A DNA stretch of 64,000 nucleotides from Takakia lepidozioides (lineage: Eukaryota; Plantae; Bryophyta). Under the pieces are notes generated by a model. The model was not told where the DNA came from, made no database searches, and worked only from the letters and a program-made list of their open reading frames with translations. Shown here in pieces: positions 4,371 to 36,551 of this stretch. The position numbers were made by a program, and so were the translations under genes. Position 1 is the stretch's first letter. Every line of letters begins with the position of its first letter. Where the stretch lies: assembly GCA_030704615.1 (NCBI GenBank), contig CM060732.1, forward strand, positions 12,090,001 through 12,154,000, in the 5' to 3' direction.

Positions 4371-4439
4371 TACCTCTGTAGGATTGGAAATGGTGTCATC
4401 TTTTGAGCAATGTTGTTGACAAGAATAGATCTAAGTTAA

Positions 4440-6231: not shown

Positions 6232-8719
6232 TCACCCCTTCCTCTAGCGCCGAGTTCCTCGAGGAGCGGTAAAATCTTGGACTTGCTTAGAGTTGGAGAA
6301 AATCCAAAATCCGGCGAATGGTACTTGCCAAGTATTCGGCTCTTCGTTCTTGACTCAAATGATTTATAGGTCCCTGCAACCATCGATAGTGTCCAACACC
6401 TTGAACTTGGGACCACGTAGTGATTTGAGCATTCTGATTTTCGAAGCTGCCTTCAAACATGATTTCGTTGCCCTTTGGGTTTGAAGCCTCAACCTCCAAC
6501 AGGATTATCAGACTTCGAGTAGGCTCCACTTGCCGTCGTACGGGGTCCAGACGAGGAAGTACACGTCGCATTGGTGGCCCATCATTTCGAGAGCATCGAC
6601 GTGATGTTGAAGGTCGTGAGAGTCGGAACGGCTGATCTGGTAGTTGGGTAAGCGACAGTTCCAATGTATCTAGTTCATGTGACTCCATGCTGCCAATACA
6701 AGATGCAAAGAGTGCTGGAAGTGTAGCTATATATACTGATGTATGGTGCTCCTCCCTCCTTAGCGTATATCAGGTATACTGAATGTGGAGTCTTCACCTT
6801 GAAGCTAACTTGGCTGACATCATCGTTGTGACGTTTTATTGACGTGTAGCTCGGGGCTTAGCTGGATATCGTTGATGAAACTCTTGGACTTTGTCAGATG
6901 CATTGGCGAGGTTGGATGAAGGTTCCCACGTTCGTTCGTTGATGTCGTAGGCTTTCCAATGTACGAAATACTCAAGACGTTTATACTTGATGCGAGAGTC
7001 TAGGACTCATCGACTTCATACTCGATTTCCTGATTGACTTCGATTGGTGGAGGTGGTACAGAAACTCTCCCTAGAATATTCGATAGATGATACAACTCCA
7101 ATAATGAAACATGAAAGACTGGATGGATGCGCATACTTCGTAGGAGTTCAAGCCGAAAACTGACCGGATTTATTTGTCGAATAATTTTGAATACTCCCAG
7201 ACGTTGATAATCCAACTTCCTTGATGGTCGCGAGGTTTGTATGTCCCGTCGAAGAAGCCACACACGATCTCCGATCTTGAACTGGGGTTGGAGTTGGCGA
7301 TGTTGATCTGCATAATCCTTATATTATTTTTGAGCTTCTGCGAGGTGGAATGTAAGCTCATTGTGAATCGTAGCAAGATGAGTAGCAAGGTTTTCTACAG
7401 CAGGGTTTCCGACAGTCTTCATGTGGAAAGGGTTTGCTCGAGGATGATGACCATAATTGGAAAAAAATGGAGTCTGTTTGGTCGAAGAATGTATAGTGTT
7501 GTTGTAGGCAAACTCAGCCAAGGTCAGTCTGTGAATGATTAGCTGTAGGTAACCGTCTTATTACATGGAATGAAATGTGTCATCTTCGTAAAACGATCCA
7601 CAATAACAAGGATTGAGTCGGTGGTCTTGGAAATTGGAAGGTCCGTAATAAAGTTTATAGACAATGACAACCATGGACCCTTGGGAATGGGTAATGGTTG
7701 AAGAAGGTCGTAAGGTCGATGTCGTGGTCCCTTCGCCCTAGCACACGTGTCACAAGATTTTATAAATTATTTCACGAGTTTCCACATCTGCGACCACCAA
7801 TAGTCCCTGGATATCAATTCCATTGTTTTGTTGAAGCCGAAATGTCCTGTAGCCGGAAGATCATGACATGCTTGAAGAATTCAAAGTAGTGTAGGTCCTG
7901 GAGGTACATAGAGAAGTCCCTCGAAATAAAGTAAGCCATTTTTGAATTCGAAGTCGTTTGTAACATGTGGGTTGTCTCGAGGTCGATTTAGTTGACTTCG
8001 TAGTGTCGTAGCAAATTGGTCGCTCTTCAGTGCTTCCTGAATCTCCTTTATGATCTCTGCATCGTTATAGGTGGACATGTATAGAATATTCAATTGGAGG
8101 TTTGTTGGTTTCCAGATGATGGATTTCTGTTGGTCGAAAGTTGTCTCCCTTTTTTTCGGCGCAAGATACGATCGTCGAGAAAGAGCATCGGGTTTCCCTT
8201 GAAGATATCCGGGGCGATAGGTAATAACAAATCAAACCTTGTTAGTGACATACCCCATCTTGCTTGACGTTGATTCAAAACACGAGCACTCATAAAATAT
8301 TCGAGATTTTTGTGATCGGTGTAGACAGTGACCTGATGTTTAGCTCCCTCCAATAGATGACGTCACTCCTCAAAAACATCGATGATCGCTAGAAGTTCTT
8401 TGTCATAAATTTCATAATTGATTTATGCAGCGGAAAATTTGCGAGAAGAAAACCAACAGGGTGAAGTCGGCCATCCGTACCGTATTGAGAGAGTATAACA
8501 CCAAGTACAAAGTCTCATGCATCTGCTTCCAAAAAGAATGGTTTAGATGGGTCTGCATGTACCGGTATTGGAGCCGTTGTAAATGCATGCTTCAGCCTTT
8601 CAAATGTCTGGTCAGCCTTCTCGTCCCATACAAATTTGTCCTTCCCTGTGAGTCGTGTCAATGGTGCAGCAATTTGGGAGTAGTCATTGATGAAGATTCT
8701 ATAGAAATTTGCAAATCCA
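5606..8719 (-). mobile_element. Gypsy A: 3' half of a degenerate Ty3/gypsy chromovirus (Tcn1-like)
   Basis: pol remnant from GFANFYR through RNase H ([11 protein letters not shown]), integrase (VDRFTKM, AEFAYNN), GPY/F region and chromodomain (EYEV...YFVHWKAY...TWEP); PPT GAGGAAGGGGTGA next to the 3' LTR; 5' half absent. Confidence 0.9.
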
Positions 8720-8867
8720 TCTTAATCCCCTGCCCTATTTGGACATGGGAATTTCACCAAACAGGATAAAACACTATATATATATACATGTAAGCCCAAA
8801 AATGGAGAAAGATTTGGGTTTACTTGAACAAAGTGGATCCATGAAGAGTGATTGGTCTCATTTGCAA

Positions 8868-9230
8868 GAGGGTAGCTACCGTGTGAGCAGTTCATGTGAG
8901 CATGCTCACGCTTTAAGTGGTAAACGTGAGTAGAATCCCTTAAGCGTGAGCAGATTGCAAACGTGAGCAGATTAGTGAATGGGAGCCTACAACCGAGGGA
9001 AGAAGATGACCTATTGCCATGGACAAAAACTACACTGTACGGACACAATCTCCACCCCATCCGACGGAAGAATCCTTCATGGGTGACGACCATATGGTAC
9101 GAATGTGCGATGAAAAGCTGCAGGTTAAATGGTTTTGAGATGAATGAAAAAATGAATGGATGAATGTTGGATGACTTTTGGATGAAAAATGAGCGACATG
9201 AATGAACCATGGTGCGTGTGCAGGTGCTCG
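8868..9230. mobile_element. Putative DNA-transposon left end (GAG/GGG terminus, GTGAGCA and GGATGAA subterminal repeats)
   Basis: GAGGGTAGCTACCGTGTGAGCAG is an imperfect inverted match to the end at about 16205; the repeat motifs are mirrored at 15960-16205; no TSD found. Confidence 0.45.
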
Positions 9231-11513
9231 AGATTAAGGTATACGCTCGCAATATTACTTACGCAGCATAGACACGAAAGAACAGAGCAGAGCTTTTCTC
9301 TTGAGCGATGCTTGCAAGCCCCGCAAGCTTACAAGAAATTACCTATAGTGTAGTGTGAATGCAGGGGAGTAACATTGAAAATTTTGTTGGGCATCAAATT
9401 ACGGCATTGGTGAAGAAGGGAGTGCCTGGTACTAATGTCGGGAGGGAATTACCCAGGCCTACAGGTAATTCCATGGGAACACTATGCTCTTGCTCTGCCA
9501 GGTCAAAATATGGCTAAGTCATAACATGCGCATTTTCATCCTTGGAATGAATGATTTTCGTCGCGTATGTTTAACCTAGAAACTCGAGCTGAGGAAAACG
9601 AGGAGGAAGACGACGGACAACTCTTCACAGCTGCTGCCATAGTGTTGTCAGGCAGGCTGGCTTGGGAACTTACACCTGCACCATGTGAATCAGCTTGCCT
9701 TAAAGACGTTAAGGGATCTGCTTGGCATTTTGTGCAAAGAGAAGCGGTGCCTCTTTCTGCGTGGTGACAATCAATTTTGAAAGCTGAGCAGGTGCTAAGA
9801 GCGGTGCACTACCGCTGCCGCCATTGTCTTGAAGAGTACAGTTATGAGGAGATGGAGCGCAACAACAGCTGTTGGGGAATGAGAAGTGCAGGCTGGTGTG
9901 GATGCGACTCAGGTTATCTGTAATTAAAACTTGTAGTTGCCTTCTGTCTTAGAGCTGTAGGAGCACATCAATCCTTAGGGCAGAAGTACACATGTAGAGG
10001 GATAGGGTAGAGGTTGGCAAGCACAAGGATGTTGCCAGCTGATGAAGCAAGCCGTCATGACATGATGAGAACTGGAATCAAGATGAGGAGAAGCGTTGAA
10101 TATGGCTGATGACAGCGATGGTGAGGTGCCAGCTTGGCAGGCAGAACCACCGCTTCACACGAGTATAAGACAGATAAGTTCTAAGAGTGTTGGCTTCTCT
10201 TTTGGGGCACTTAGGAATGACTTTGTGAAGTTTTTGGAACTGTCTCTTGTATCTGCTGAAGGGGACAGAAATGTGAGGAGTAGAAAGGCCTTTGAAAATG
10301 GAATGAAGACACTGGAATTCAAACCAGGATAGGGTGGAGATGGATGCACCTGTTGTTACACTGTCATTAGGAAAATGAGAGAGGGGACAAGGATATCTCA
10401 CCTCAGGGTCAGAATGGTTGTTGTTGTTGTGTTCCTTTTCTTTATTTTCAGTGTCTTCAGCCAGCATAAGCAAAACAGCCCTGGATGTTAAAACAGTGGA
10501 GCCAGTGTAGAACTAGCTTGGTGGATAAAGGAGAACAGGGATGGTCAGACAGAAACGGATTTGAAGAACTGAGAGGGATGACGTGGATGGGGAAGAAAAG
10601 TCAATACTGTTTTGGGGTTTGGATCTGATTCATAGAAGTGTTCTCAACATGTGAATGACTGAGGTTTGCATTTGAGGAGAAAAAGAGAGCTGTCAGGGTG
10701 TGTGATTTGAGATCTGTAGAAGGGTTGTGAAGCACCTTGGCCAAATAGGATCCACTTGGGGAAAGATAGTGCAAGGACCAGTCACTGGAGAGAGAGAAAA
10801 AGAGAAAGACCGACAGAGGGCAGATCATGTCTTGTAACCAAGGTTGACTTCAATGATGGATGCACTGGATGCCTGGCTGGATGTGCATTTGCATTGCATC
10901 ATAGCCATGCTGTTGTGGAAAAAGTGAGGAATCCACACACGAAGGAAAAAGAGTTTGAGAGAAAGAAAAGGGAGAAAGGGTTGATAAGGGATGGACAAAT
11001 GGAGAGGCAAGGTCAAGAAGACATGACCCCTGAATGATCAAACTAGTGGGCCTGCAGTTCATGGCAGATCTGAGCTGCCCACCCACCTAGACCGTGATCT
11101 CATTACAAAAAGGGGCTTCCGACGTGTTGCAAAACAAGGGAACTGCCCACAAGGGCAGTGTTTATCACTGACATAGGGCTGATTGCATCACTGAATACAT
11201 CGCACCAACATAGTTGGTGCTGTACCTGCAGGTAGAGGATGTTGTGTAAAAGGTAGAACCAAGAGTGAACAACAATTTGACTCCCCATCCATGTCTTCTC
11301 TTCCGCTGCGGCGTGGATGAGGATTGCTTGAACTCTGATCACGAAGGACCTGAGGGAAACCCACAGCCAAGTGACGACAGTTGGACAGATTAGAAGAACG
11401 TTCTCTCTTTTGCTCCGCTTAGAATGGAAGGAAGCACAATTAGAATTATATAGAAGGGGATTCACGCCCCTTCTTTTCACACTACAATAGCTTTCTGTGG
11501 CAACCATACGTTT

Positions 11514-14507
11514 ATGCTTTGTGCACTACAGGCATTTCTGCAGTTGTTACAGCCAAAACAGTTCTGTGAGTCTAAAATGAAGAGAGTGAGAGGAATGGAG
11601 GAAATCAGGGTGAAGAGCACCACAATTCTGCAGAAACAAACGATTGCTACCCCACAGGCGATACAGATACTGGAGGAGCTGAGATTGCAAGGATTGCAAA
11701 GCATAGATTGGACATTACACCATAAACAGTACATGTTACAATTTTTGCAGAACTTTGAGCCAAGGACAGGAACAACAACGGTGAAGGGAGTTGAATTAAT
11801 GATTACTCCCCTATACCTCCAGCAATTGTTTCGATTGCCAGCAGGTCAGGTGCATGTGGAGGAACACAGGGCAAGACTGCAAATAGGGGACTTATTCCAA
11901 GAAGGGAGTTTCTTTAAAACTCAGGGTTATGCTTGTACCAAGGTTGTGTACCCAGGGCTAAAGGAGGTAGGCCAGGTATTGAACGTTCTGATTGCCATGA
12001 AACAGAACCAACAGTATTTGAGCAGATCCTTCACGGAGGAAATACTCAAAGCCCTGAAGGGACAAGAGGTACAATGGGCGGACATAATGTACAACGCACT
12101 GGTGGAGGAGATGAAAAGATTACAAGGTACTACCGCAAAGTCTCCTATCATAGTGTCTGGCCCAATCATTGCTCAAATAATTCTTGATTCTGGCATACTT
12201 GATGCGCAAGAAAGAAAGGAGATGGGAGTGTTTGAGCCAGAAACCACTGCAATGGAAGAGCAAGGCTCTTCACACAGTGAGGGTGGACTAGCAGGGCAAC
12301 CCGAGACTAAGAGGCAGAGACGGGTCTGGTCAAGGAGACAGAGATTCCAGAGGTGCAACAGTTGCCCAAGGGAAATCCTGAGGTGCATATAATACACACA
12401 CCTGTGTCGGAGGTACCACAGGCGGAAGGTCATGACACTGTAGCACCGGTGATAGATGAAGTGGTTCAGGAAGAAAATCCGGTGGGACAATGGCCTGAGT
12501 GGTTCGTGAGACATCACACTGTTGAGGATCAGGAGGAACAGCAGCAACCTCACCATGATGACCCTCAACAGGCAATGCTGATGAGTTCCATAGGCATGAC
12601 ACTTAATTTGTTGGGGACTTATGTCAAATCCCATGTTCCAACTACCCAATTGACAGCCTTGAGAGAGGAACTCAGGAAGGAGTTTGAAGCTCGACTAGCC
12701 ACTGAGTGTGCAAACAAGGTCGATGAAGAGGTCACTCTCAAGATGCAGCAGGACTTGGGAAATACAGAAGCGGCTTTGCAATTGGCCAAGGAACAATTGA
12801 TTGAGGCAGGCCTCGCGCAAGACCAGTTGCACGAAGCACATAAGCAACAGCTATACCAAATGCAGGTGCAGCATGAAAGCAAGTTACAAGAAGTGAATGC
12901 ACTACATACGGAGTTGTAGACAGTGCATGACAGGATGGCGATACAATGTGCTACATTCACAACTATGCTTGACCAATCTACAAAAGAAATAAACAGTCAA
13001 GCGGAAAAATGTACTCTCAGGGGAACCACAAGCAACTTGGTGGATAACCACCTTATGCAGGTCTGGTTAGCACAAGGGCCAGTGGAGGGCAAAACACCAC
13101 GAAAGCTCACCCAAAGCGAGATGAATGAGCTCAGGCCGCAGGTGCAGAACATTGCCACAACTACTATAGACAATGACAATAGCAGAGTTACAGGAGGATG
13201 TAGACGGACTGCAGACTCAAGTGGAGGACCTCACTTCAAACATCGACAAAAGAGTCTATATCCCTCAGGAACAGCTAATGGCTTCTTATTTACAAGCCAG
13301 AACTTTGGCTTTTCAGTCTTCACAGGAGGTGCAGGAGATGCTAATGATACAAGAGCCAGTACCACCAACACCACAACAAGTCACTGTACCAGTAGCTGAA
13401 CCTGTTGTTACTACAACCACACCACAGCCACCACAGCCTGAGGTATGGGGCAATGCTGCTTTTAACCCACCTAAAACTCCAACTGCAAGGGAGTACAGTA
13501 GGGCTATGATTATGCCCTTCAACCAAATTCCCATCATGTTGGATTTGGCTTGGAAAGAATTTAGTCCTCCGCAGTCATTCGCACATTACTACCAAATCAT
13601 GCGCATCTGGCTGCCAGTGGCAACTAGGACTAAAGTTCTTCCGAACAATCGATCAATTGAGGATCATCACTTTGCACAGTACTGGCACGAGGCAGGTACC
13701 ATGTTGAGGGAATTAATTGCTTTCTAGGTTGTACATGGACTCATTTATACCAAGACCAAGGAGGTAGCAAGTATTGTCATGGGATGCGGGTTATACTACG
13801 CTGCTTGTTTTCTAGTACGTTATCACATTGAGCAACAAAAGATGCAAGCACGCTTTCTGAGTTATTCCAGTGGGGATCATTGGGTATTACCTTCGGTGCC
13901 ACCTCATATGTACCTATATGATGCAAAAGTTATGATGCGAAAGGATTCTCAAATTCGTTCATGGTTTCAAGCGGCCTGGAACAATTTGTCAACACAGAAA
14001 TTCGGCATTGATGATATTTTCTATAAGGGACATGTGGCATGGAAATACTTGCACGCTGCACCAGTAATTGGTACCCCACTCACCTGGACAGACAAGGAGC
14101 TCAGTGTCTACACCAATTTTGCTATTCAGCGGTTACACCAAGTTGTAAAATATAAACTTCCAGACATGGTAGGACAGCATTGTATGCCCCAGAGGATTCC
14201 ACAAAAAGTTCGAAAATTTAAACACCTGAGAGGCGATGAGGATTATGATACAACTGTTTCTTCACCGAATTCTTTTGACATGGGAGAAGACTATGCAATT
14301 CAGATGGCAGAGAAGAAGCGACGGGGGTCTCCTATGCCTGAAAGGTTACCTCGATATCAGCCTCCAGAGAGCCTCACTTATCCAGGTAGTGATCAACCAT
14401 CTCCATCAAACAGAGACAGACCTCGGGCTCGTACACACAGTCCGCCACGAAACTCTCAACGTCAGAAAGGTGCTCACTCACAAAGGTTTGCTAATCGCAA
14501 TCAGTAA
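11514..14507 (+). pseudogene. Extra (env-like/ORF3-type) gene of an LTR element D, about 1000 codons with stops and frameshifts
   Basis: Chain of ORFs 11514-12392, 12353-12919, 12923-, 13173-13727, 13779-14507; N-terminus (TVKGVELMITPLYLQQLFRLP, GQEVQWADIMY) resembles plant retroelement accessory proteins; coiled-coil middle; lies directly before the PPT and LTR. Confidence 0.6.
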
Positions 14508-14545
14508 ACCGTGAGGACACGGCTTTTTGAGGGGGGAAGGGGTAA

Positions 14546-15293
14546 TGTTAGAGGACTGTCTGGGACTTAGACACTTATACGGGATCTGTAGGGTACCCTT
14601 AATTTTTGCACAGACTGAGACCAACAGGAGCCTTAGGGGTGACAGCAGCGCACTGTAGAGGGGGGTTACACAGCCCGTCACAGTCGTCACAGCCCACACA
14701 GCCAACATAGACCGTCACAGCCGACACAGCCAACACAGCCCGTCACAGTCGCACAGCCAGTCACAGCCCGTCACAGTTTCACACAGCCAGTCACAGCTTG
14801 ACACAGCTGTCACGACCATAGGGAACGGAGAGCAAGACAAGGAACGACTGTGGGGAACAACACCTGCATATGGAACATGTTAGTTCACGGACGACGGTTA
14901 GTGAGGGAAACGGTTAGAGCCACCACGGGTAGGAAGATAAAGGGAGAAGCAGGGAATTTTGGAGGGGATTAGGATTATGATTATTCGGAGGAGGACTTCT
15001 GGGTCATGCATGAGAGGAGATGGAGCGGAGAGGAGGATCGGAAGCAAAAGATGGGGAGCACGGTGAAGGAGGAAAGAGGATTAGTAGATGCTTGTTATAT
15101 GCAAAGCGATAGTGATATAGTAGAGCAGATTAGAGACACAATGGCTTCGGCCTGATACCTGATAAATCATAATCTGATACTTATACGATACAATCACACT
15201 GTGTAGAGCGATCTGAGTGAAGCTGTGGAATGAATGGATGAATTGATGAGCAAACTGATACTCAATTATCAATAGTAAAGTAGCTAGCTAACA
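14546..15293 (+). repeat. 3' LTR of element D
   Basis: TGTTAG...CTAACA inverted termini, preceded by PPT GAGGGGGGAAGGGG (14529-14542); contains GTCACAGCC tandem repeats. Confidence 0.8.
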
Positions 15294-15949: not shown

Positions 15950-16205
15950 ATGCATCTTAGTTTTGCATTCATCCACAAACTACATTCATCCATGTGCCAT
16001 TCGTCGAACATACATTCATCCCCCATTCATCCATCGTTCATCCATCATTCATCCATAACGATGAATGACGTATGCATGATAAACTAGACACAACCCACAG
16101 TAGTAGGTCTTATAGGCCGAATAGGTGTCCGCGGTTATATGTGAGCACATGCAGAAGCGTGAGCAGAATTCTGCTCACGGATTCTGCTCACGGTTTAGCA
16201 ATCCC
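15950..16205. mobile_element. Putative DNA-transposon right end truncating the Gypsy B integrase
   Basis: CATTCATCC and TGCTCAC repeats ending CTGCTCACGGTTTAGCAATCCC; the integrase frame stops abruptly after MVEHFSKW. Confidence 0.55.
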
Positions 16206-18371
16206 CCACTTGGAGAAGTGCTCCACCATCACCAACACATATTTGTGGTGGCGCATCGTCAGTGACAACGGTCTTGCGAAGTCAAGACTCCATCTGTAGC
16301 CCAATCCCATGATCGGAAGATGATGCAACTGGGGTGTAGGGGCATTGAATGAAGCACGCACCCTGTCACACACCATGCACCTAGCCACGAACCGTTGAAC
16401 CTCTGTGTGCATACCACGCCACCAATACTGCCCCTGTAGTAAACTGTGAGTGCGTCGCACTCCAAAATGCCCCAACTCCTCATGCGCATGCCGCACTAAC
16501 CGTGCATGCTGTGTGGGGTGAGGCACAATCCTCACCCGACCATCCTCCCACACTCGGAGCAGGTGTATCCCCTCCCACTTGAACCTCTTGGCTCGTTGCA
16601 GGATCCAATCCCTCTCCTTGGCAGTCACAGTGGCTGCCGTGTCTCCAGTACGGAGGTAGTCCAACACAGCCAAATCCTCATGTATATCTCTGGCACCACC
16701 TGCCTCGTCACTAGCCTCAGGGTCCTCAGACACTTTGTCTATAGTCATCCCCATTGTAGGTCTAATCTGACCTCCTGCTGCCAAGATACACAAAAATCCA
16801 GATGCGTGCCATCCCGACACCATCTCCTCGTCCGTCTCACCATGCCACCGAGCTCCAATTTCATCCTGCTGGCTCGTGCATGAATTGCGACTCAATCCAT
16901 CCGCATCTCGATTGACCAAACCCGGTCAATGCACAACCTGAAAGTCATACTCCTGGAGTATGAGTGCCCATCGTGCAAGCTTCCCCGTAAGTTTATCTGA
17001 CTCCATCAACCACTTGAGTGGCTGGTGATCCGTGACAAGGGTGAAGAGATTGTCGTATAGATAACACCTGAAGTGTGCCACGACCCACACTGCAGCTAAG
17101 CACTCTCCCTCATATGAGCTATACTTAGCCTCTGCAGCATTGTTTGAGCGGCTAGCATAAGCCACTACGAACTCTCTTCCCTCATCATCCACCTGTGTGA
17201 GCACCGCTCCAAGCCCCAGCATGCTCCAATCCGTATGCAGCTGAAAGGGACGCCCCCTGAAGGTCGTCTCAGGATAGGCGCCAAAGTCAACCTCGCCTTG
17301 AGCTCTTGAAAAGCTCGTTCCTTCTCATCTTTCCACTGCCACTCCTGGTCCACCTTGGTCAGCTTGGTTAGAGCCTTTGCAATGGCACTAAATCCCTTGA
17401 CAAACCGTCTATAATAATTTGCCAACCCCATGAAAGCTCGAACTCGGCTCACATCCGTCGGGCGTGGAATTTGTGCAATGGCCTCTACCTTAGTCTGTTG
17501 CACCCCCAATCCTCCTGGATATATCATGTGACCCAGATACTCAATCTGGTTGTGGAAAAACTTGTACTTCCCCGGATGTAACTTCAATCCGTGCGCTCTC
17601 AAGCGCTCCAATACCACCTGAAGGTGTCCCTCATGCTCCTCTACCGTAGCACTAAAGATGATGATGTCATCTATATAGCACCGAACAAAGTCCACCCCTG
17701 CTAGAATCCTATACATGACTCTCTGAAACTCTGCAGGAGCGTTCTTAAGCCCAAATGGTAAGAACCGCCACTGATATAGGCAATCCTTGCCGTGCTCATT
17801 GATCCCCCAGAATGTCGTCTTCTGCTTGTCCGCCTCCTTGATCGGCAACTGGTGATATCCGAATCGTAAATCCAAAGTGCTAAAGACCTTAGCATGCCCA
17901 ATGACATCAAAGATCTCCTCCGGTGTTGGGCATGGCATACTTATCAGACTTGGTCTGACGATTTACAGGTCGGTAATCACCGCACATACATCTCTCCGTC
18001 CAATTGCCATAGACATCCTTCTTGGCTGGCATCACTGTGGCTGAAGCATACTCTCCACCAGAGAGCTCCACCAAACCTACCTCCCAGAGATCTTGACTCC
18101 TCATCTGAATCAAAGACCTCTCCACGTCACTACATCTATAGGGTCTCCGAAAGATTGGCGTGTCAGTGGCCAACTCAATACGGATCTCTTGACCCTTCAG
18201 TGCTCCCAAGTCCTTCAAACTAAAGGCAAAGCAATTCCTATAAGCCCTCAGGAACCGCCGTATACGTCGTCTCTCTCCTCCGGTGACAATGGGTCCAATG
18301 TCAGGCTCCCAATTGTCCTCCGTAACTGCAACCTTAAGTCCAGTGAGCTTAGAGGTAGAGGACGCGTCCAA
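16206..18371 (-). pseudogene. Gypsy B RT, RNase H and N-terminal integrase
   Basis: DYRPVN, LDLRFGYHQ, LPFGLKNAP, CYIDDII, MGLANYYRRF, AYASRS, HEELGHFG...CMVCDR; frameshifts near 17930 and 17260. Confidence 0.93.
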
Positions 18372-18669
18372 TGGTTACTATGTTGCAACCTCTTGAGCAG
18401 TACTCCCTACCTGCTCAGTCAATGACAAGGCCTCATCCTGCCCCATCATCTCATCCTCGAGGACTTCCTCAACCCGAGAAAAATCCCCAATCTCATCCAT
18501 CACCACCACCTTGGCTGCCAACTCCCTCTGAACCTCGAGCACCTCCCACGTGTGCCATGGATGCCTGTACCCTGTGGTCCTCACATGCTCGCCCCCACTC
18601 ACTGTCTGTACCGTCTCGGTAGGCAGAGAGACCATCGAGGGAAGTGTACTCCATACTCTGCGCTGCTCG

Positions 18670-19635
18670 CCATAGCCAAGCTGATAATCCAGGTCAAGCA
18701 ATTGAGATCCATTGCTTGCCCCAACACCTGATGACGTGATGCCTCAGAAAGAGACAGCACCGCCGTGGTATCAGTGGTAAAATCCATCGCCCGTTCACGT
18801 TCGTCAACATTAGGCTCTACTAACTGCTGCAACTGAGCATCCCACAGGAGGCCAAGTCCACTATCCCGGAAAGCATGCGATCCTGGGAATCTGAGCAATG
18901 TAGGTAATGCTGCTTGTGGTTGACCCACCTTGTTGACCACTGCCAAAGACGAACGGTCATCGTGTCTCACACGCCGAAACTACCTCCCTGTGTCCAAAAT
19001 GCTATCCATTGTGAGGTGTGCTGGTCGTTGCACCCTATCAAATGCACGCTTGAGCAGTGCGGGTGACATCAAGTTAGTCCACCATAGCCGTGGACGATGA
19101 GCCCGTGACCCCACTGCAGCTGCATCCAGCAACACTGCTGACCCAAGCCACGACCGGACTTAATGCACACTGGCCATCACCCTGGCCCGAGAATCGCCCA
19201 TCAGTGGCACATTCTCTAAGATGTATGCTGGAGATACAACTTGATGAAGCTGCAAGTGGCGCAAAACCCGCACCATCTCCCAAAATAGACCCGACCTCGA
19301 GTCTCGCAATCCATTGCCATGCCCGGCTGATGAATGCCCTTGGCAGGGCCAACCTGCCACTACCAGATCAATGGAGCCAACCCGCTCCAAATCCTGCGCC
19401 CCCAACAATGAGATGTCTGTTGGCAAGGCCTGCTGATATCCACGAACTGCAGACACCGTCAACAACTCAGGGCACTGCTGCACCAACTGAGCAATATGGC
19501 GTATGGAGATGCGTCGTGCAGTCTCATCCCTCTCCACATACAAGTAACGCCGAACTTGTACACCTGCCTATAACACAGCAGCCAATCCGGTGCTGATCGC
19601 GCCAAACAAGTCCAGAAGGCAAATGCCTTCATCCG
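18670..19635 (-). pseudogene. DNMT3-like cytosine-5 DNA methyltransferase domain inside Gypsy B pol
   Basis: One frame: motif I LLDLFGAISTG, YLYVERD, motif IV DLVVAGWPCQGHS, SGLFWE, motif VI ILENV, motif VIII GSRAHRPRLWWTNL, motif IX ERERAMDF, motif X QVLGQAMDL; three premature stops (about 19569, 19161, 18981). Confidence 0.9.
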
Positions 19636-19684
19636 GATACTGCCACACAATAGGTGTGGTGTCCAATGGAGACAACTGAGGTGG

Positions 19685-21964
19685 TCATGGTGTAATCCTC
19701 GCACTCTCTTCCTCTCTTGATGGTACAAAAGCCTCTACCCAGGCTTGTTGCACCCGTCGATCAGCAACCTGCTGCAAATCCTTGCTCGTGCCCCACAATA
19801 GAGTCTGAGCAATCATGGCACGCAACTCCGCCATACCATACATGTCATCCTGCTCTGTTGGAGGTGACACATCCTCTGAATGAGCGTTGCCCTCTAGCAA
19901 CTCTCCAGGCCAAGTCACTGCAGCTGTGAATGCTACTAGTGTCGGCATCTTGCCCCACTGGGCAACCGCAAATTCTCCTATGAACGTCACAGGGAGCTGC
20001 ACATGCCGGCCCTCCCCTGACTGCCATCTAGGCCTATAGGAAGCTGACTCCTCCCAAAAATCCAGGATGAATCCCATGGGGTAAAACACTGCCCCACCAA
20101 CCATGACATCGTACGAGACCGCGTCTGTCACAATGGCATTGGCTCGCATCACTGAGCCATCTGTAGGGTGATCCGGCCGTAGTCTGATAGCCAACTCACG
20201 CCATGTCATGCCCCGAGCCTGCTCCGATTCTCCCAGAGATGTCTGTATCTCGAAAGAACAAGGCTCCATATCCGCCTCCGTGAGGCCCAAGCCTACAATA
20301 GCAACTCTGCCCGACATCAATGGCTGAGCTCTCGAGTCCAACAAGACTCGCAGTGGCCGATATCTCTTGCCTGCCGGTCCACTCAAACAGAAAATGTCAT
20401 CCTGGTTGTCTAACATGACAACCCCAAGTGTCACCATGGCGCGCTCAATGGCTGGCCTAGCTGGCAGCTCCGCCAACCTGGCAGCTGCGGCTTGCCATGG
20501 CGCCGTTGTGGCAGTCTTGACCCTCACATCCGAGGATCCGGCCTCTGTCACTACACCTCCCACTATCTCCGCAGAAGATGAAGTAACCTCCCCACTCTCA
20601 CAGAGTGTAGCTACCAGCCTGAACACCTCAGCTGGTCTTACCCCCGGCGTCGCAATCATGGTAGCTGAGAACAATGGAACCTGGCACACAGATGTGGCCG
20701 CCCACAGCAGCACACTAGCTGCCGTAGCCTTGGCAACACTAGATAGTGGTGTTGCCCGTGTGGCTCTCCCCAATGGCATAGTAACCTCCGCCTCAGTAAC
20801 TGTCGGGCGAGAACTAGGTGCCATGGATGGCGTCGACACTGTCTCCGCCAATGTGAATGACTGAGGAAGCCTAGCCTGACGGCTTGCCTCCCCACGATGT
20901 GAATCCAACTCCACCTCTGCACCTCGTGGTTCAGGAACTCGTGCTGCTACTCGGGTCACTGCCGCCGCCGACTCCACTTGCACTAGTGGTAGTGCTGCCC
21001 CGCACATGAATCCCATGCCTCCCATATCTCCTCCCTCAGGAGCAAGAGGTGGACCATCCGGCCTTGGAGCCGGTACCACCTGAGCTGTAGCCATGGCAGC
21101 GAGCCTCTACTCTAGCTGCTGAAGCCGGTTGGCCATGCCTTGGTCAACACCCTGACCTCCACGTCCTTGGCCATGTTGAACTTGCCCTTGGCCTGCACCT
21201 CATGCCTGGTCACCTCGTCCTCTCTGGGCTGCTCCACCTCGCCCCCGGCCACCATTGTTCCTTGGAACTGGCCTGGGCGCAACTCAGGATGCAAACCATA
21301 ACACTGGGCCTCGCCATGCCCGTGCTTGCCACAATGCCCACACTGCAACTGTGCAGGCTGTGCATGTGCCGGCCTTTTGTCTCCCTCTGGGCAATCCTTC
21401 TTGACATGGGGTCCTCCACATGTCTAACGGCCTGCAAATGAAGGGAGAGACCCTTGCATCTGAGGTCCTCTCTATCCTTCCCTGAGCTTCACCCTAGCCC
21501 CCTCGTTGCCTTGAGCACGTTGAGGTGGTTGGCTAGGAGCACCACTACCTCGTGGTGTCTCCTTAGCAAATCCCACCATGACCACTCGTTCCTCCACCAT
21601 GTTGAGCTCTATCCGCTCTGCCAGCAAAAACACATTTGCTAAGGTGGGTTGGGCCGCTTGTAGGAGAGTTGCATCCCGCACCCTTCTCCTCAGCTCCTTG
21701 TCCAATATCCCATACCAGAATTGGACTGCCTGAGCTTCCGTAACCCCTTGGGTTACATTTATCAAGCGCCTCATGCGAGTGAAAGCCTCCCTCAAGCTCT
21801 CAGTAGGCTTCCATTGGAACTCTTGCAAGCTCCGCAACTTCTCTGTCCTCACCCCTTGGTAGTTCCCTCTCAACTCTTTGAAGAACTCCACAACAGGGTT
21901 GAAGGCAGGCACGGGTACTGGTGCTGGTGCGGTAGTGGCTTGGGTGGACGTCGTAGCTACGGTA
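19685..21964 (-). pseudogene. Gypsy B gag C-terminal part, linker and aspartic protease
   Basis: Capsid-like LQEFQWKPTESLREAFTRM; CCHC knuckle near 21340; protease RVLLDSRAQPLM...YDVMVGG. Confidence 0.8.
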
Positions 21965-21969
21965 CCACC

Positions 21970-22692
21970 TGTCGCACACCTCAGTTCGGTAAACTCCCCT
22001 TCAAGTCATAGTTACTCGCTTTGATGCGCGCGCCTGACTCCCAACCTGGCCGCCGGGCCAACTTGGAGTTTCGGCTGCTCACCGGGACATAACGGTCCCC
22101 TTCCACTTCCCTCTAAACCCTCCACCTATTTGGGACTAGGAGAATTCCCTTTGGTAGATGGCAGTCCGGAACAGCTCCCCACTCTTTGGTCGCTTTTCGG
22201 CTCGCTCGCTTACTCACTAGTTTTTGGTCACCAACGGGCTTGCACCGTTCTCGGGGTTACTACTCCCTATATATACTTCTGTAGCTGTCCGCGGGGGTTT
22301 CATAACCAGCCATGCCATTTTATGGCGAACCACCACGAAAACCCTCGACTCCCGGTGGTGAGTCGCGGTGAGTCTTGGCCCACTCACCGCGGCCCCAATG
22401 GACCGTGATGAGTCCCAAGACTCCCCACGACTCCCACCTCGAGGTCTCCACCCCATGGTGAGTCCTATGCCACCCCCACTAAGTCCCACTAAGCTACCAC
22501 CACCCCTTGTGGAGCCACCTCCACCGCAACCCGGTGTGCGGGGCTCCACCTAGTGAGCGCCTCCGCCTCCTTGGTGCCTTGGGCACTCAAGGGTGCTTCA
22601 GCCCCCCATACCTATCGCTGCCGCTGCCCCCACCACAGGGGCAGCCCCTCATGTGTCTCGACCCCCTGCCCTCAAGGCAAAGGGCCGCAACA
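21970..22692 (-). repeat. Gypsy C 3' LTR
   Basis: TGTCGC...GCAACA; direct repeat of 28216-28937. Confidence 0.96.
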
Positions 22693-23600
22693 CACACCCC
22701 TACCAACAGGGAGTCGATGTCCTCATCGACTTGTCCATTTTGTAGAAACGAACATCCAAGTTGTGGCGTCCCACATCAAGGAGTTTGTTTCCGTACCATG
22801 GCGTCCCATGGCAAAGAACCAAACCCCACACTTGACTCCACTCTCCACTAGCTAGTTCGGCCGACTTCCTCCAAGTCCCGGCCAAGGGTGGAGCCTCTCC
22901 AGCTCCTCCCAGTGCACTCTTCTTGGCCTACTTCAAGGCCAAGGAACGATCCTCCCCGAGGATCGAATCGCCTTACTGCAACAACATTGCTTGCGATCGC
23001 TCATGATGCCGCTTTTGGCATCACCTTGAGCAAGGGTTCACCTGGAACCCTCTTTGACTAGGAAGATAACCTTGAACCAACCGTGCGCCCCAATCACTAC
23101 AATTGGGTCCGCCTTGGAATGCTGGCCTGAGGTACGGGAACACGCCGAAGCCGCACTACGACTTCGTCCCGAGGCTACACGATTATAGTACGTGAACGGA
23201 AGCACGTAGCTTCCGCGTTAGCCCGCACTACAAGGCAACCCCCTCGGTAGCGCAGTTATAGTACGCGCACGCGCCAGGTGCGCACTAGCACTTGAACTCC
23301 CAAATAAGGCGCAAGTTTCCTTGCCCCTTGGATGGGAGTCACCCGATTTCGGCACTGCGCAAACACACGATTAACCCAATTTACCTCTCCCACTTTTGTA
23401 AGCTAGCATGCATTCTACACACCAGCCAACCACACCATGCATCACCATTCCAAACACAATAGGACGCACAATATTTGGAACCCATTTCTTTATCACAAAT
23501 TTTTTTTGTACAATACAAGTTTTTGCAATCGGATTCCTGAGCTAGCTAAACCGGGCTAAGCATGCATTTCCTCCCCCACGCTCCAAGGTTGATGTCCCCA

Positions 23601-26364
23601 TCAACGCTTCTTCCGCTTTTGAGGTCGCCCTTCGAACGCTGCAACTGCCTCGGATGCGTTTCCCATTTCTGAGGCACGCACCCAAGATGCCTCCACAAGA
23701 TGATAGCCCTTCCATTTGACGAGATACTCCGTTTCTCGGTTCTTGAACCTCCTCGACTTAAGTATTGCCTCCACCTCGTACTCGGGTTCATTTTCATGAT
23801 CCAACAGCATAGGTGGCGGACGCAACACTTGCTGCCGATTCGGACGTGCTTCATCTTTGAAGTAAGGCTTCAAAAGGGAGACATGGAATACTGGGTGCAC
23901 CTTGCTGTTTGCTGGCAGCTCCAATTCATACACATCCTCATTCATAACCCTCCGAATGCGAAAGGGACCCGCATACGGAGGTACAAACTTCGGACTCATT
24001 TCCGGAGGTAGTCGAAAATTCTTGATGTTCAACCAGACCTCTGTGCCTGCCTCAAACTTCACTTCCCTCCGCTTCCGATTCGCCTGCCTTTCATACCGTT
24101 TCCTAGCTTTGGCAATGTTGTACTTTGCGAGCTTCAACAAACGCTCGCGTTCTTCCAGTACCGCCGCTACTGCCGGTTCCTCAACGTCCTGGGCGGCCCA
24201 ACTTGTCGGCACCAGAGGTGCTTTTCCATAGACCAACACAAAAGGGGAAACTCCCGTCGCGGAGTGTTCTGTGTTATTATAACAGAACTCTGCCGCGTCT
24301 AAGTGTTCCATCCAGTCTGATTGGTCTGCCGACACGTAATTCCGCAAGAATTGCTTCACTACGGAATTCACTCTTTCCGTTTGGCCGTCCGTCGTAGGTC
24401 GGAAGGCGGTGCTCATCTTCAGCCTCGTCCCCATCTTCTTCCAAAGTGCTCTCCAGAATTTACTCGTAAACTTTGGATCGCGGTCCGAGACAATATCCTT
24501 CGGGACTCCATGATGCTTTAAGACGTGGGCGAAGTAAAGTCGCCCTGTCTCCTGCGCAGTTGCCGTCTCCTTGGTGGGGATGAAATGGGCCATTTTACTG
24601 AACCTATCTACCACCACCATGATTGCATCGAATCCTTTTGACAGCGGCATAGCAGTCATGAAATCCATCGAGACGCTTTCCCAAGTCCCCTCTGGAATCG
24701 GCAAGGGTTGTAACAGCCCCGCTTGCTTTTTATACTCGCTCCGGTTTTGTTGGCATGTGGTGCATGTCTTAACATACTCCTCTGCCTCCTCCCTCAGTTT
24801 GGGCCAGAAATACTCTTTCTTCAAGAGTGCCGCAGTGCGCTTGGCTCCACCGTGGCCCGCAAGCGGGCTATCATGGCATTCTCTCAAGAGACTATCCCTG
24901 ATCCCTCCCTTTGGCACATAGAGACGTTTTTGCTTATACCGGAGCAGTCCGTTTTGCAAGTGGAACTGCGATTTAACCCCCATTCTCAAGTTCTGCATCA
25001 CGCACTTTGCCAGCTCATCCTTCCGGCAAGCCTTCCGGATCTTCCTTTGGAGCGCCGTCTCGCCCTTGTACACCAACAAGAGCTGCTGCTTTCTACTTAA
25101 AGCATCGGCCACCACATTGTCCCGTCCCGGTTTGTACTGGATATCCACGTCGAACACTGCCAAAGTATCTTGCCACCTAAGTTGTTTTGGGGACAACTTG
25201 GGCTGCGTGGCAAAATACTTCACCGTGACATTGTCCGTGAACACCTTCACTGGGTTGGAACCAACATAGTGGCGCCAGAGTTCAAGGCAATGTACCACCG
25301 CCTTCATCTCTTTTTCGTGCGTCGGCCACCGTCGCTCCACTTCATTCAGTTTCTTACTTTCGTAAGCCACTGGACGTCCATCTTGCATAAGTACACCCCC
25401 AATTGCGAAGTCCGATGCATCTGTATGAATCTCAAACGGACGATCGAACTCCGGGATTTTTAAGACTGGAGCTTCCGTCATCCGCTGCTTCAATTCAGCA
25501 AAAGCTTGGCCACAAAATGTGTTCCATACCCAGACTTTGGATTTACACAGAAGGTCCGACAGCGGCCCCGCGATCTTGGCGAAATTTCTCACATACTTCC
25601 GGTAATAGGAGGCGAGTCCTAGGAAGGATCGCACTCCCGGACCGAAGTCGGAGGCTCCCAGTCCAAGATCGCCCTCACCTTTCTGTCATCCATTTTGATC
25701 CCATCCTGTGTAATCACGTGCCCCAAGAACTCCACTTTTGTGACCCCGAATTCGCACTTTGAAGCTTTGGCATACAGCTTCCCTTCTCGCAATTTTTGGA
25801 ACACCCTTTTGAGGTGCTCCAGGTGCTCCTCCTTTGTTTTCGAGTACACCAAGATGTCGTCGATGTACACGATCACAAAGTCATCCAACCACTCCTGGAA
25901 AAGGCTGTTCATCAGCGTGCTAAATGTCGCTGGTGCATTGGTGAGCCCAAAAGGCATCACCAAGAACTCATATGAACCATACCTTGTCCTGCACGCGGTC
26001 TTCTCCTCATCTCCTTCCGCCACCCGAATTTGGTGATAGCCGGAGCGCAAGTCGATCCGGCTGAAATACTTCGCTCCTGCCAACCGATCGAAGAGGTCGT
26101 CGATCCTTGGCAAAGGGTACCGGTTTTTGATAGTCACCTTATTCAGAGCCCTGTAATCGACACACATCCGCAGCGTCCCATCCTTCTTGTCTGCAAATAG
26201 CACCGGGGCTCCGTAAGGTGACTTACTCGGCCGGATGTACCCCTTTGACATTAGATCTTGAGCTGAGTCTTCAGCTCGACCAACTCTTTGTGGCTCAACC
26301 GGTAGGGCGCCTTGGCAGGCGGTTCCGATCCCGGTATCACCTCAATTTTGTGGTCAACTCCTCT
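23601..26364 (-). CDS. Gypsy C pol (RT, RNase H, integrase, chromodomain), with two apparent frameshifts
   Basis: VYIDDILV; [10 protein letters not shown]; [13 protein letters not shown]; SMDF/SDRD/TERVN; YEVEAIL...YLVKWKGY; frame breaks near 26260 and 25634. Confidence 0.92.
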
Positions 26365-28162
26365 TCACGGTGGCAAGCCGCTTGGTAAATCCTCCGGCAT
26401 CACATCCTGGTATTTCTCCAAAATCCCCTTGATCCAATCTGGGCTCGGCTCCCCATCGCCTTCTCCTTTCACTTCTCTAATGTAAAGCAAAAACTGGGAC
26501 TCGTGTGTCTCCTCCACGGCCCACTCCTTTGCTGATAGAAGGTTTATTCGCCCTCCCACGGATTTGGGCGTTTCCGACACTCGTAAAACCTCGCCACCAT
26601 TCCCACATGGCAGCGTGACTACTCTCTTGCGGCCATCTATGACCGCTCCGGATTTGCTCAAAAAGGTCATTCCCAAAATGAGATCCACTCCATCGATCTC
26701 GCAGATAGTGAAGTTCTCACGTCCCTCCCAACTCCCCAGTTGAAGAGGAACATCAAACGCCAACCTTGTCGCCAACTGAGGTTCTCCTTTGGCAGAGCGC
26801 ACCTCAATAGAGGCCCCCACGTCACTTGTCGAGAGTCCCAACTTTCGCGCCGCCGCCGGCGTCATGAAGGAGTGCGACGCTCCTGTGTCCACCAACAACG
26901 ACACATTAGTTCCGGATATTATCCCATCCACGAACAATAACTGACTCCCTTTTCGTAAGGCGCCAGTTTCCTGATACAACTCACAAGAAAATTTGCCTAC
27001 CTTGCAAGTCCTGGCGACCACCGCTTCCACCAAGCGACTGATGGTATCTTCCGACAGCTCCGTGGTCGCCCGAGTCATGTTCAATTGCCGGGGCTTCGTG
27101 CACTTCTTGGCCATGTGCCCGGGCTCCCCGCAATTGAAACACACTCCATCAAAGGTCGCCTTCTGTCCGCCATAAGTCGCTCCACCCGCTTTTCCTTTCG
27201 AAGCACCGGGTGCCGCCTTGACGTGTGAAGGACCTCCCTTCGATTTCCACGTGCCATTTTCGCCGCGTGGCCTATCCCACTTCTTTTCCGGTCGGGAGGA
27301 GTCACCTTCCCGCCGGGTCTTCTTGTGGTTCAGCTCCGTACGGCCTTGTCTCTCACCCCTAGGGACATCCGAGAAACATTCAGCTCTCTCAATTGCCTCG
27401 TTCAAAGTCTTGGGTGGCTTCTCCTCCAACTTCCGCCTAGCCCATGGGGCCAGTCCCGCCACAAAGTTGAAGACCATTTCTGGTTCTGCCATGTCCGCGA
27501 CTTCGAGCAACAGCACATTGAAAGCCTGGACATACCCCCGAATGTCATCTGTTTGCTTCAAATTCCTCATCTTGTCCCGGGCAAGCCAGGATGCGTTGAG
27601 GGGCACAAACTGTCTCTTCATCAATTCCTTGAACTCACTCCAGTTCAAGGTTTCCGGGCTTGGGCCTCGGTCGTGAAGGCGTTTCTGCCACCATTGTTGA
27701 GCATAGCCCCTCAAATAGGTGGGAGCCACTTCCACCCGATCCTCGTCACTCAACTTGGCCGCCCGGAAGTACTGCTCTAGCTCCAGGAGCCAGGTGTTGA
27801 GTGCCTTCCGGTTTCGAACGCCCTCGAAGGTGCCGGGTTCCTTAGGCTTCACCTTAAACTTTGCCTTGGTGGAAGTGGCATTAGCCGCCTTCAACACGTC
27901 TTTCAACGTCCCGCCAAACTGCGCCAACAACCCTTCCCAAAAGGCTGCCGGCATGGGAGGCATCTCTTGGTTTGTCGGAGCTCTCAAAGATTCCTCGGGC
28001 TCCGACTCCTCGGATTCCTCCCGCTCCTGAGCGGCCTCGTTTCGGAAACATTAATCGCTTCCTCAAACGGCCGCCTCGGTGACACGTCGCCCCCATCGGG
28101 CTCACCGGGATCATCATCTTTTGGGCCGTTCCGCTTTCGCTTCGGCTTGCCCGACCCCATGA
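26365..28162 (-). CDS. Gypsy C gag-protease
   Basis: Retrotransposon gag (YLRGYAQQWW, LKQT..IRGY); knuckle CFNCGEPGHMAKKC; protease LVDTGASHSF; the probable ATG near 28160 is offset by a frameshift. Confidence 0.9.
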
Positions 28163-28200
28163 TGAGGCCAATCCCAAGGACGATCGCGTACTGAACTCTA

Positions 28201-28213
28201 AGCTCTGATACCA
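28201..28213 (-). promoter_or_regulatory. Primer binding site (tRNA-iMet)
   Basis: TGGTATCAGAGCT on the minus strand, 2 nt from the 5' LTR. Confidence 0.95.
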
Positions 28214-28215
28214 AA

Positions 28216-28937
28216 TGTCGCACACCTCACTTCGGTAAACTCCCCTTCAAGTCATAGTTACTCGCTTTGATGCGCGCGCCTGACTCCCAACCTGGCCGCC
28301 GGGCCAACTTGGAGTTTCGGCTGCTCACCGGGACATAACGGTCCCCTTCGCTTCCCTCTAAACCCTCCACCTATTTGGGACTAGGAGAATTCCCTTTGGT
28401 AGATGGCAGTCCGGAACAGCTCCCCACTCTTTGGTCGCTTTCCGGCTCGCTCGCTTACTCACTAGTTTTTGGTCACCAACGGGCTTGCACCGTTCTCGGG
28501 GTTACTACTCCCTATATATACTTCTGTAGCTGTCCGCGGGGGTTTCATAACCAGCCATGCCATTTTATGGCGAACCACCACGAAAACCCTCGACTCCCGG
28601 TGGTGAGTCGCGGTGAGTCTTGGCCCACTCACCGCGGCCCCAATGGACCGTGATGAGTCCCAAGACTCCCCACGACTCCCACCTCGAGGTCTCCACCCCA
28701 TGGTGAGTCCTATGCCACCCCCACTAAGTCCCACTAAGCTACCACCACCCCTTGTGGAGCCACCTCCACCGCAACCCGGTGTGCGGGGCTCCACCTAGTG
28801 AGCGCCTCCGCCTCCTTGAGTGCCTTGGGCACTCAAGGTGCTTCAGCCCCCCATACCTATCGCTGCCGCTGCCCCCACCACAGGGGCAGCCCCTCATGTG
28901 TCTCGACCCCCTGCCCTCAAGGCAAAGGGCCGCGACA
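28216..28937 (-). repeat. Gypsy C 5' LTR
   Basis: TGTCGC...GCGACA; direct repeat of 21970-22692. Confidence 0.96.
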
Positions 28938-28942
28938 CCACC

Positions 28943-29302
28943 AGTCCCACTTAGTCCCACTGCTGCTTTTTGAAGCTGCCAGTGTAGCGGCAGGTGTAGC
29001 CATTGCCCTCGTGGCTCTAGTGCCCCTAGTGATGGAGACATAGTCGGGTGACTAGTACATCCTCCACTCCTCGATCTCAACCTCATGCCCCCGCCTGAAC
29101 TCATGGTAATCATCCATAGGCGGCCCCTCAAGGGCTGAAACAGCCCCTTCCATGCCATGAAAAGCGTAAATAGTTGTGGATTGTGCATTTGCTGCAAATC
29201 ACACCAACTATCAAACTCTTGGATAAAATCATCCAACTCGATGGTGCCCACTGCCCCAGAGTACCTTCGTGGCCCCTTGGTAGCTCCATACATCTCCTCC
29301 AT
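28943..29302 (-). pseudogene. Gypsy B gag N-terminus
   Basis: MEEMYGATKGPRRYSG...LDDFIQEFDSWC; joins 21964 once Gypsy C is removed. Confidence 0.75.
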
Positions 29303-31049: not shown

Positions 31050-31262
31050 GCACATCGGCTGGTAAGTGCACATTGTGTCGCCGTGGTGGTTCGAGGGTTC
31101 AAACCCGCTGCCCTACCCGTGTGTGGGATTGTTCGTGATGGTATCTCTGGGCTGATCGTCCTGTAGGTCTCATGGCCCATAAATGAAAGGGGGTTAATTT
31201 TTCCCCCTCCTCAAGGGCCTGAGGTTTCCTTTAAAAAACGAAAAAAAAGAAAAAAAATCAAA
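31050..31262 (+). mobile_element. tRNA-derived SINE-like element
   Basis: B-box-like GGGTTCAAACCC at about 31095; A-rich tail after GTTTCCTTT. Confidence 0.45.

Positions 31263-36497: not shown

Positions 36498-36551
<54 letters not shown>

Follow-up and report, generated by a model that had tools for sequence, protein, structure and literature searches.

The window, that is, the whole stretch of 64,000 nucleotides from Takakia lepidozioides that was analyzed, harbors on its minus strand a dead, twice-interrupted Ty3/gypsy copy of the Gypsy-DNMT3 (KnitGypsy-Dnmt3) lineage. This element has the order gag-protease (PR)-reverse transcriptase (RT)-RNase H (RH)-integrase (IN), with an intronless DNMT3-like cytosine methyltransferase (DNMT) inside its coding region. 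The DNMT3-bearing gypsy is a repeated family in its host and no one-off capture. Gypsy-borne DNMT3 is already known in Klebsormidium nitens since 2018; new are a conserved readthrough-type stop, a single RT clade with two DNMT positions and a PHD finger, and, in relatives, split repeats, a 4-bp target-site duplication (TSD) and a self-priming signature. The parts of the element, in the order of the minus strand, are the following.

28943..29302, minus strand: 5' piece of gag with one frameshift, ATG at 29302 (tblastn and sequence)
21970..28937, minus strand: nested chromovirus-type Ty3/gypsy, a later insertion splitting gag (LTRs, TSD, primer-binding site, chromodomain)
21110..21964, minus strand: 3' piece of gag with zinc-knuckle-like motifs, stops and a frameshift near 21259 (PF03732, tblastn)
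19685..21106, minus strand: Gag tail and aspartic protease, in frame with the DNMT (homology to relatives)
18670..19636, minus strand: DNMT3-like C5 cytosine methyltransferase domain, motifs I-X (motifs, PF00145, structure matches)
18372..18380, minus strand: amber stop in a decayed context, predicted readthrough site (family conservation)
17262..18239, minus strand: reverse transcriptase, frameshifts near 17928 and 17260 (PF00078, 1.1e-28)
16878..17258, minus strand: RNase H (PF17917, 3.9e-36)
16206..16514, minus strand: integrase zinc finger and start of the core, cut at ~16206 (PF17921, 8.9e-16)

Both pieces of gag align in tblastn with Marchantia proteins, the 5' piece with residues 1-115 of P0003 and P0004 (78% and 48%) and the 3' piece, whose PF03732 match is weak (0.003), with residues 132-357 of P0003 (56%). 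At 21259, the site of the gag frameshift, the sister contigs show a one-base difference from the window. The nested chromovirus is nearly intact, with LTRs ~98% alike, a tRNA-Met-type primer-binding site and a chromodomain, and is flanked by a 5-bp duplication of its target (GGTGG at 28942-28938 and 21969-21965); it is a younger insertion and no part of the DNMT element. A protease had been predicted upstream of the DNMT, in the ORF 21106-19685. This ORF contains an LLDS motif at 20347 and gives no Pfam match, and the assignment stands through homology to relatives that carry PF13650/PF13975. The DNMT is indeed in frame with it across one TGA (19687-19685), but this TGA is not the only interruption, the DNMT itself containing three more stops (19570, 19162 and 18982). 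Likewise, the linker between DNMT and RT shows the expected frameshift near 18668 but also further stops at 18380 and 18377, the first of which is conserved in the family. With three stops in the DNMT and frameshifts near 21259, 18668, 17928 and 17260, this copy is dead, as first proposed. On the 3' side, tblastn finds no continuation past ~16206: the window lacks the remainder of the integrase, a PHD finger and 3' repeats.

The six C5-methyltransferase motifs lie in one minus-strand frame and in unpermuted order, exactly where the original prediction had placed them (in the minus-strand translation, motif I at 19615, IV at ~19354, VI at ~19216, VIII at ~19102, IX at ~18802 and X at ~18724). 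The domain matches PF00145 with an E value of 8.5e-13 and 48.8 bits (cut-off 22), and keeps the catalytic Cys, the ENV of motif VI and the RxR of motif VIII. Its nearest solved structures are DNMT3A (4.9e-10) and DNMT3B (9e-7), the matches to DRM (9e-5 to 1e-3) and HhaI (4e-4) being weaker; when a profile of 58 relatives is compared with the same kind of structures, the values are 4.7e-29 for DNMT3A, 4e-26 for DNMT3B, 8e-18 to 2e-14 for DRM and 3e-9 for HhaI. P0092 is a naturally open relative, at 71% to the window. A Foldseek search with its AlphaFold model (pLDDT 92.4, pTM 0.90) returned DNMT3A, B or C in every listed row, the top one being DNMT3A (1.2e-18, TM 0.84 by target), and a search of the ESM Atlas gave no usable match. 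A DRM identity was rejected, since the motif order is not circularly permuted (VI-X before I-V is absent). Altogether, motif order, sequence and the fold of the open relative agree with the DNMT3-like assignment first put forward, and the retro-DNMT resembles DNMT3 more than it resembles DRM, DNMT2 or the bacterial enzymes, as far as its fold is given by the P0092 model.

The catalytic residues of the domain are also conserved. In full-length relatives of the two layouts, in which the DNMT lies either between PR and RT or between RH and IN, the catalytic Cys is kept in 54/56 and 92/92 and the motif VI Glu in 56/56 and 92/92, respectively; Cys, Glu and both Arg are near-invariant among the 148. 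Between lineages, the dN/dS of the DNMT is 0.13 for L028/L029 (dS 0.26), 0.12 for L028/L040, 0.19 for L005/L011 and 0.10 for window/L005, the last at a dS of 2.2, near saturation. This range of 0.10-0.19 resembles that of the protease (0.12-0.29), exceeds that of RT (0.04-0.17), is far from 1 and indicates purifying selection. Dead moss-type copies give 0.37-0.58 for the DNMT and 0.34-0.59 for RT. In decayed moss-type copies, private changes in the DNMT have a neutral-like pN/pS of 1.02, versus 0.54-0.59 for PR, RT and RH, and shared DNMT changes have 0.52.

Sister copies keep the domain: 62,986 contigs of run X1 of organism A, which may be the source sample itself, align over the element stretch and cover all 30 bins, those of the DNMT included, although this depth is not a copy number, and RT adjoins the DNMT in relatives. 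The nearest proteins with organism names come from Calypogeia, Marchantia (70%), Sphagnum and Riccia, the first three providing relatives at about 70%, and no seed plant or fern is named among the DNMT matches listed. The lineage is found in bryophytes, but it is much wider than land plants and also includes Closterium, Klebsormidium and chlorophytes. Through the DNMT, 70 metagenome loci were collected, of which 53 are close. As loci found in this way cannot reveal DNMT-less sisters, a search with RT-RNase H, which is able to do so, was also run, and its DNMT-less PR-RT matches fall outside the DNMT clade. Among the 53 close loci, RT is directly downstream of the DNMT in 35 and the protease upstream in 34, the remaining ones being cut by contig ends, insertions or deletions. 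Complete relatives read gag-PR-DNMT-RT-RH-IN-PHD. Several Marchantia copies are annotated as ordinary genes (P0003, P0004, P0007, P0015, P0020 and P0198), on at least five chromosomes (Mp_2g, 4g, 6g, 7g and 8g); P0003 is an open Gag-PR-DNMT frame of 1,278 aa, and its cluster has 18 members. The lineage may also inflate DNMT3 counts in algal and bryophyte genomes. Two further members of this plant and algal retrotransposon family, P0115 and P0495, are filed under cyanobacteria-like bacterial MAGs, probably by mis-binning.

A tree of RT and RNase H (49 rows, IQ-TREE, LG+G4, without a mixture model) gathers 38 rows in one clade (100/100), which holds all 33 DNMT-bearing rows, five rows whose DNMT status is not seen and none of the nine DNMT-less rows. 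The window is in the same clade (100/100) as K. nitens P0046 (KFL_009030040), a PR-DNMT-RT-RH-IN protein with the order of the window element. Within it, the window falls together with moss-type loci and Calypogeia (99/98), a Coleochaete transcript whose DNMT is not visible branches two nodes out (100/98), and the Klebsormidium and Closterium members occupy several deeper branches whose order the tree leaves unresolved. The second layout, RT-RH-DNMT-IN-PHD, which includes Hariotina and Volvox proteins, forms a sub-clade (99/99). In an earlier FastTree of 128 RT rows, obtained after 51 of 179 had been removed as redundant, P0482, listed as having no DNMT, fell inside the clade; this protein ends at RNase H and was omitted from the 49-row tree. 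A quick DNMT tree with partial, weakly related outgroups and without host DNMT3 again shows this land-plant group (99), and its second-layout sequences fall within those of the first layout; P0458 and P0443, whose coverage was low, were left out of it, and P0414 forms a long branch in it. Over 82 elements, DNMT identity varies together with RT identity (Spearman 0.54, a value reached by 0/500 permutations).

One old capture followed by one relocation would be the simplest reading of these trees. One would also wonder whether the land-plant family arrived horizontally, with an alga as donor or by exchange among bryophytes, or whether the two DNMT positions reflect two captures. Such histories would fit the scatter of Klebsormidium and Closterium over several branches, and they gain some room from the fact that most relatives are metagenome sequences and that the DNMT tree holds no host DNMT3. 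We nevertheless regard them as unlikely, though worth keeping in mind. They agree poorly with an RT tree that nests the window, the moss-type loci and Calypogeia together with Coleochaete next to them, with the single clade that contains the 33 DNMT-bearing rows and none of the nine DNMT-less ones, as well as with the nesting of second-layout DNMTs inside the first in the quick tree, with its partial outgroups.

A feature of the land-plant sub-clade is an in-frame stop in the linker between DNMT and RT. It is present in 41/48 loci, and as the other seven lack that stretch, in 41/41 of those reaching the site. The codon is TAG in 33 and TAA in 8, and the next codon is CAR in 39/41 (strict CAR-YYA in 9, CAR-YYC in 30, decayed in 2), with the reservation that the 41 loci are not independent and represent about six lineages with many repeated insertions. 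As a control, 179 decay stops inside domains are followed by CAR in 5 cases and by CAR-YY in 1. The stop is still present in lineages whose DNMT shares as little as 49% identity with the Marchantia reference. L028 has no other stop over 976-8227 (7.2 kb); the frame before it encodes Gag-PR-DNMT (1,369 aa) and the frame behind it RT-RH-IN-PHD (1,047 aa). L040 likewise has no other stop over 2669-7805, from the protease on. In the window, the context of the stop (18380) has decayed, and at 18377, among the differences listed, nearly every sister contig departs from the window sequence. Because of this stop in the linker DNA, many database ORFs end 60-190 residues past the DNMT and many others begin shortly before RT; the gene models of Marchantia and Calypogeia likewise terminate at its position. 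A 2,173-nt contig of run X12, which is RNA by guess and was not counted as evidence, crosses the stop region uninterrupted.

TMV uses UAG-CAR-YYA as its readthrough signal, and retroelements with in-frame stops include SIRE1, Tca2, MuLV and candidate rice gypsy elements (PMC2754532, PMC2194720). Systems of the TMV type, SIRE1, Tca2 and MuLV likewise have one in-frame stop that sets an abundant short product against a rare long one; there the stop is at gag/pol or pol/env, whereas here it follows gag, protease and an accessory enzyme (PMC2754532, PMC2194720). Most hexamers of the moss-type copies differ from the TMV signal in ending with C, and the 30/41 contexts that read CAR-YYC instead of strict CARYYA are a point against readthrough. 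The DNMT had been described as an integral pol domain. It is integral to the Ty3/gypsy element, but in this sub-clade the conserved stop places it at the end of the Gag-protease-DNMT frame, so that the enzyme would be made at Gag levels. The Klebsormidium and Closterium proteins, and P0472 of the same sub-clade, are continuous and have no linker stop; hence expression at Gag levels is not needed across the lineage.

From these sequences, we propose that most ribosomes would stop after the DNMT, with Gag-PR-DNMT as the bulk product, and that a minority very probably read through UAG-CAR-YY(A) into RT-RH-IN-PHD. RT and integrase would then be made at a small fraction of the Gag level, and the DNMT would be packaged in the particle at roughly Gag levels, either cut free or tethered. 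Live members would thus probably make DNMT in bulk as a tail of Gag and methylate CpGs in their own new DNA. We favor, by a small margin of belief only, a further step in which the enzyme acts on the cDNA no later than integration, and new copies would reach the genome already methylated. For an accessory enzyme, an abundance like that of Gag points to a role inside the particle, and such a stoichiometry may explain why the isolated domain failed in yeast. A point against this reading is that KnitGypsy-Dnmt3 did not methylate yeast DNA in the one published assay of the lineage, where human DNMT3B failed too and which was called inconclusive (PMC5890265).

On the other hand, this negative yeast assay (PMC5890265) could also mean that the DNMT acts on host chromatin, at the insertion site or on competing elements, or that it is a non-catalytic binder of DNA or nucleosomes. 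Synthesis at Gag levels would leave surplus enzyme outside particles, and the PHD finger on the integrase points to chromatin as well. A binder, however, would not need the catalytic Cys, Glu and both Arg that are near-invariant in the 148 relatives, and the coding sequence of the element itself is CpG-poor, which speaks against a target elsewhere. At codon junctions, CpG o/e is 0.30-0.33 in the window DNMT element versus 0.74-0.79 in the chromovirus inserted into it; three near-open relatives, for which there is no same-host control, have 0.09-0.53. CHG o/e in the window element is 1.02. This CpG depletion is ambiguous, as it is confounded by age and host methylation. We consider action on host chromatin, or mere binding, as a minority reading, clearly behind methylation of the element's own new DNA.

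Readthrough itself has competitors in splicing, an internal promoter or re-initiation, by any of which the linker stop could be bypassed. Splicing around a stop occurs in Ogre elements. Some Marchantia and Sphagnum gene models do splice across the linker stop, but the modelled introns vary in length from one model to another. The moss-type family has an ATG three codons behind the stop, which could serve re-initiation; yet no AUG is conserved behind it among the relatives compared, the first in-frame Met being at codon 48 in L011, 14 in L040 and 92 in the window, while L028 has none in the first 87 codons. A promoter at the gag-pol junction exists in Tca2 (PMC2194720). Against such routes, CAR-YY is kept across lineages only ~49% alike in their DNMT, and we hold a bypass to be improbable compared with readthrough. 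Finally, the domain might come from a single capture of a transcript of host DNMT3, or belong to a nested transposon with a methylase, and decay neutrally, as the three internal stops of the window DNMT might suggest; this is ruled out for practical purposes by the sister contigs, the same position in 35/53 loci and in Klebsormidium and Closterium proteins, the dN/dS of 0.10-0.19 and the co-variation of DNMT and RT identities in 82 elements (Spearman 0.54).

The ends of the relatives form DIRS-like split direct repeats. L037 is complete, with the structure A-internal-B-A-B, in which A has 339 bp (TG...CA), a purine tract follows the internal region and B has 113 bp (TG...CA). In L012 and L017 the element finishes with a single B, and the contig of L024 breaks off just behind B. 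Where B meets A, in L002, L028, L037 and L040, the junction is a near-palindromic CA-NN-TG, and both insertions whose two ends are readable have a 4-bp target duplication (AAGG in L037, CACA in L026). Opening of a circular intermediate at the junction of B and A would give both forms of end. Moreover, the sequence that follows A can pair with a stretch within A, the complementarity spanning 16 nt in 2/8 loci, 9-10 nt in 4/8 and 6 nt in 2/8; in a random control, at least 9 nt were found in 4/2,000 positions. This complementarity resembles self-priming of the Tf1 type. The repeats of L037 have no match in the window, and the ends of the window copy itself were not found, a search for a terminal motif, a self-priming pair or a B-A junction upstream of its gag having given nothing convincing. 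A chromovirus or canonical plant gypsy identity was rejected, as the window element stands outside the chromovirus rows in the RT trees and its relatives have a PHD finger in place of a chromodomain, split repeats and a self-complementary primer-binding site. The lineage is a rare case of an element with a DDE integrase and split direct repeats.

In DNMT-bearing relatives of both layouts, the PHD finger sits on the integrase. Its nearest solved relatives are those of CHD4, PHF12, PHF21A and KDM5, PHD fingers that prefer unmodified H3 tails. An attractive hypothesis, though a speculative one that we rate below even, is that this finger may steer the integrase to chromatin with unmodified H3 tails. 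In the Hariotina protein P0071, residues 2403-2459, after the PHD finger, show a weak Tudor-like match (PF21743, 3.6e-4, below the cut-off), which from its sequence could be a second chromatin reader in the chlorophyte layout.

Taken as a whole, one tentative history would combine these elements, and we rate it as less likely than not. The DNMT would have been captured before the split of chlorophytes and streptophytes, kept since and moved once, from the PR-RT to the RH-IN position. Land-plant members would have gained the leaky amber stop, every Gag subunit then carrying a DNMT that methylates cDNA in the particle. A PHD-guided DDE integrase would open the circle at CA-NN-TG and thus produce A-internal-B and A-internal-B-A-B forms with 4-bp TSDs.

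The precedent named for Klebsormidium in the original prediction is a real one, namely KnitGypsy-Dnmt3 (de Mendoza et al. 2018, PMC5890265), which belongs to the same RT clade. This K. nitens element is likewise a Ty3/gypsy with an intronless, unpermuted DNMT3, a Ka/Ks below 0.2 and DIRS-like repeats (PMC5890265); the latter are matched by the split repeats of our relatives, here with the hallmarks of an integrase. In its description, the DNMT was acquired within the K. nitens lineage and belongs to the Pol ORF (PMC5890265), whereas we find the lineage in Marchantia, Calypogeia, Sphagnum, Riccia, Closterium and chlorophytes, and the conserved amber stop of the land-plant sub-clade separates DNMT from RT so that there is no single Pol ORF. 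The available text of PMC5890265 does not mention the PHD finger, the second DNMT position, the target duplication or the self-priming signature. Retrotransposon-borne cytosine methyltransferases also exist in Symbiodinium, as SymbioDIRS-Dnmt3, which methylated CG de novo in yeast, and SymbioLINE-Dnmt; these belong to other classes (tyrosine-recombinase DIRS and LINE) and are independent captures (PMC5890265).

Later papers deal with LTR-borne DNMT3 or the Gypsy-DNMT3 of streptophytes (bioRxiv 2026.05.21.726589, PMC12344493), and 'Gypsy-DNMT3' is named as such in bioRxiv 10.64898/2026.05.21.726589. The same preprint describes DAM-LTRs and EpiLTRs, which are LTR elements that combine a DNA methyltransferase with a chromatin reader. 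DAM-LTRs carry adenine methylases and EpiLTRs a DNMT4-related module with chromodomains, and their origin is separate from that of the DNMT3-PHD lineage (bioRxiv 10.64898/2026.05.21.726589). Three gypsy polyproteins of our searches, P0430, P0438 and P0441, have the adenine methylase PF05869, two of them also a PHD finger; they lie outside the DNMT3 clade and match DAM-LTRs (bioRxiv 10.64898/2026.05.21.726589).

A 2019 opinion paper considered methylase-encoding transposons as absent from 'land plants, such as tracheophytes' (PMC6338049, available text). In agreement with the original prediction, we found no characterized land-plant family in print, in a mostly open literature whose figures and supplements may hold sequences. 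The parts available of Neumann 2019 (PMC6317226), of the Apopellia genome paper (PMC12885004) and of a centromere atlas preprint do not describe a land-plant DNMT family, nor do those of PMC11982613, PMC9406493, PMC9940879 and PMC12344493. In the same mostly open literature, we found no description of the chlorophyte form, nor of the DNMT-RT linker stop or the split-repeat ends of the DNMT lineage. The family is abundant in bryophyte data, including those of the model Marchantia, so that what a transposon gains from a silencing enzyme could be tested in a tractable plant with methylation mutants.

The window contains other elements, whereas a look at its ORFs gave no informative host gene. Similar, subterminal-like repeats are found at ~8740-9200 and 15950-16206, where they adjoin a second gypsy RT that is truncated near 8720 and the cut integrase of the DNMT element, respectively; they possibly belong to a DNA transposon that deleted its flanks. 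On the plus strand, 11454-14800 contains open frames of 312, 202, 185 and 259 aa, behind which come a purine tract and, near 14550, an LTR-like start; the frames are probably extra ORFs of another LTR element. At 30543-36781 lies an element of the CACTA type, whose termini read CACTACA and which has a 3-bp duplication, AGG; related ends are found at 294 and 2613. This element contains ~110-bp repeats at 32191-32993, which are presumably fragments of PPR genes, to judge by their motif. Lastly, 42153-46856 is a long inverted duplication of the 3' part of a LINE-like element, with arms of 605 nt (85%) and 258 nt (80%).
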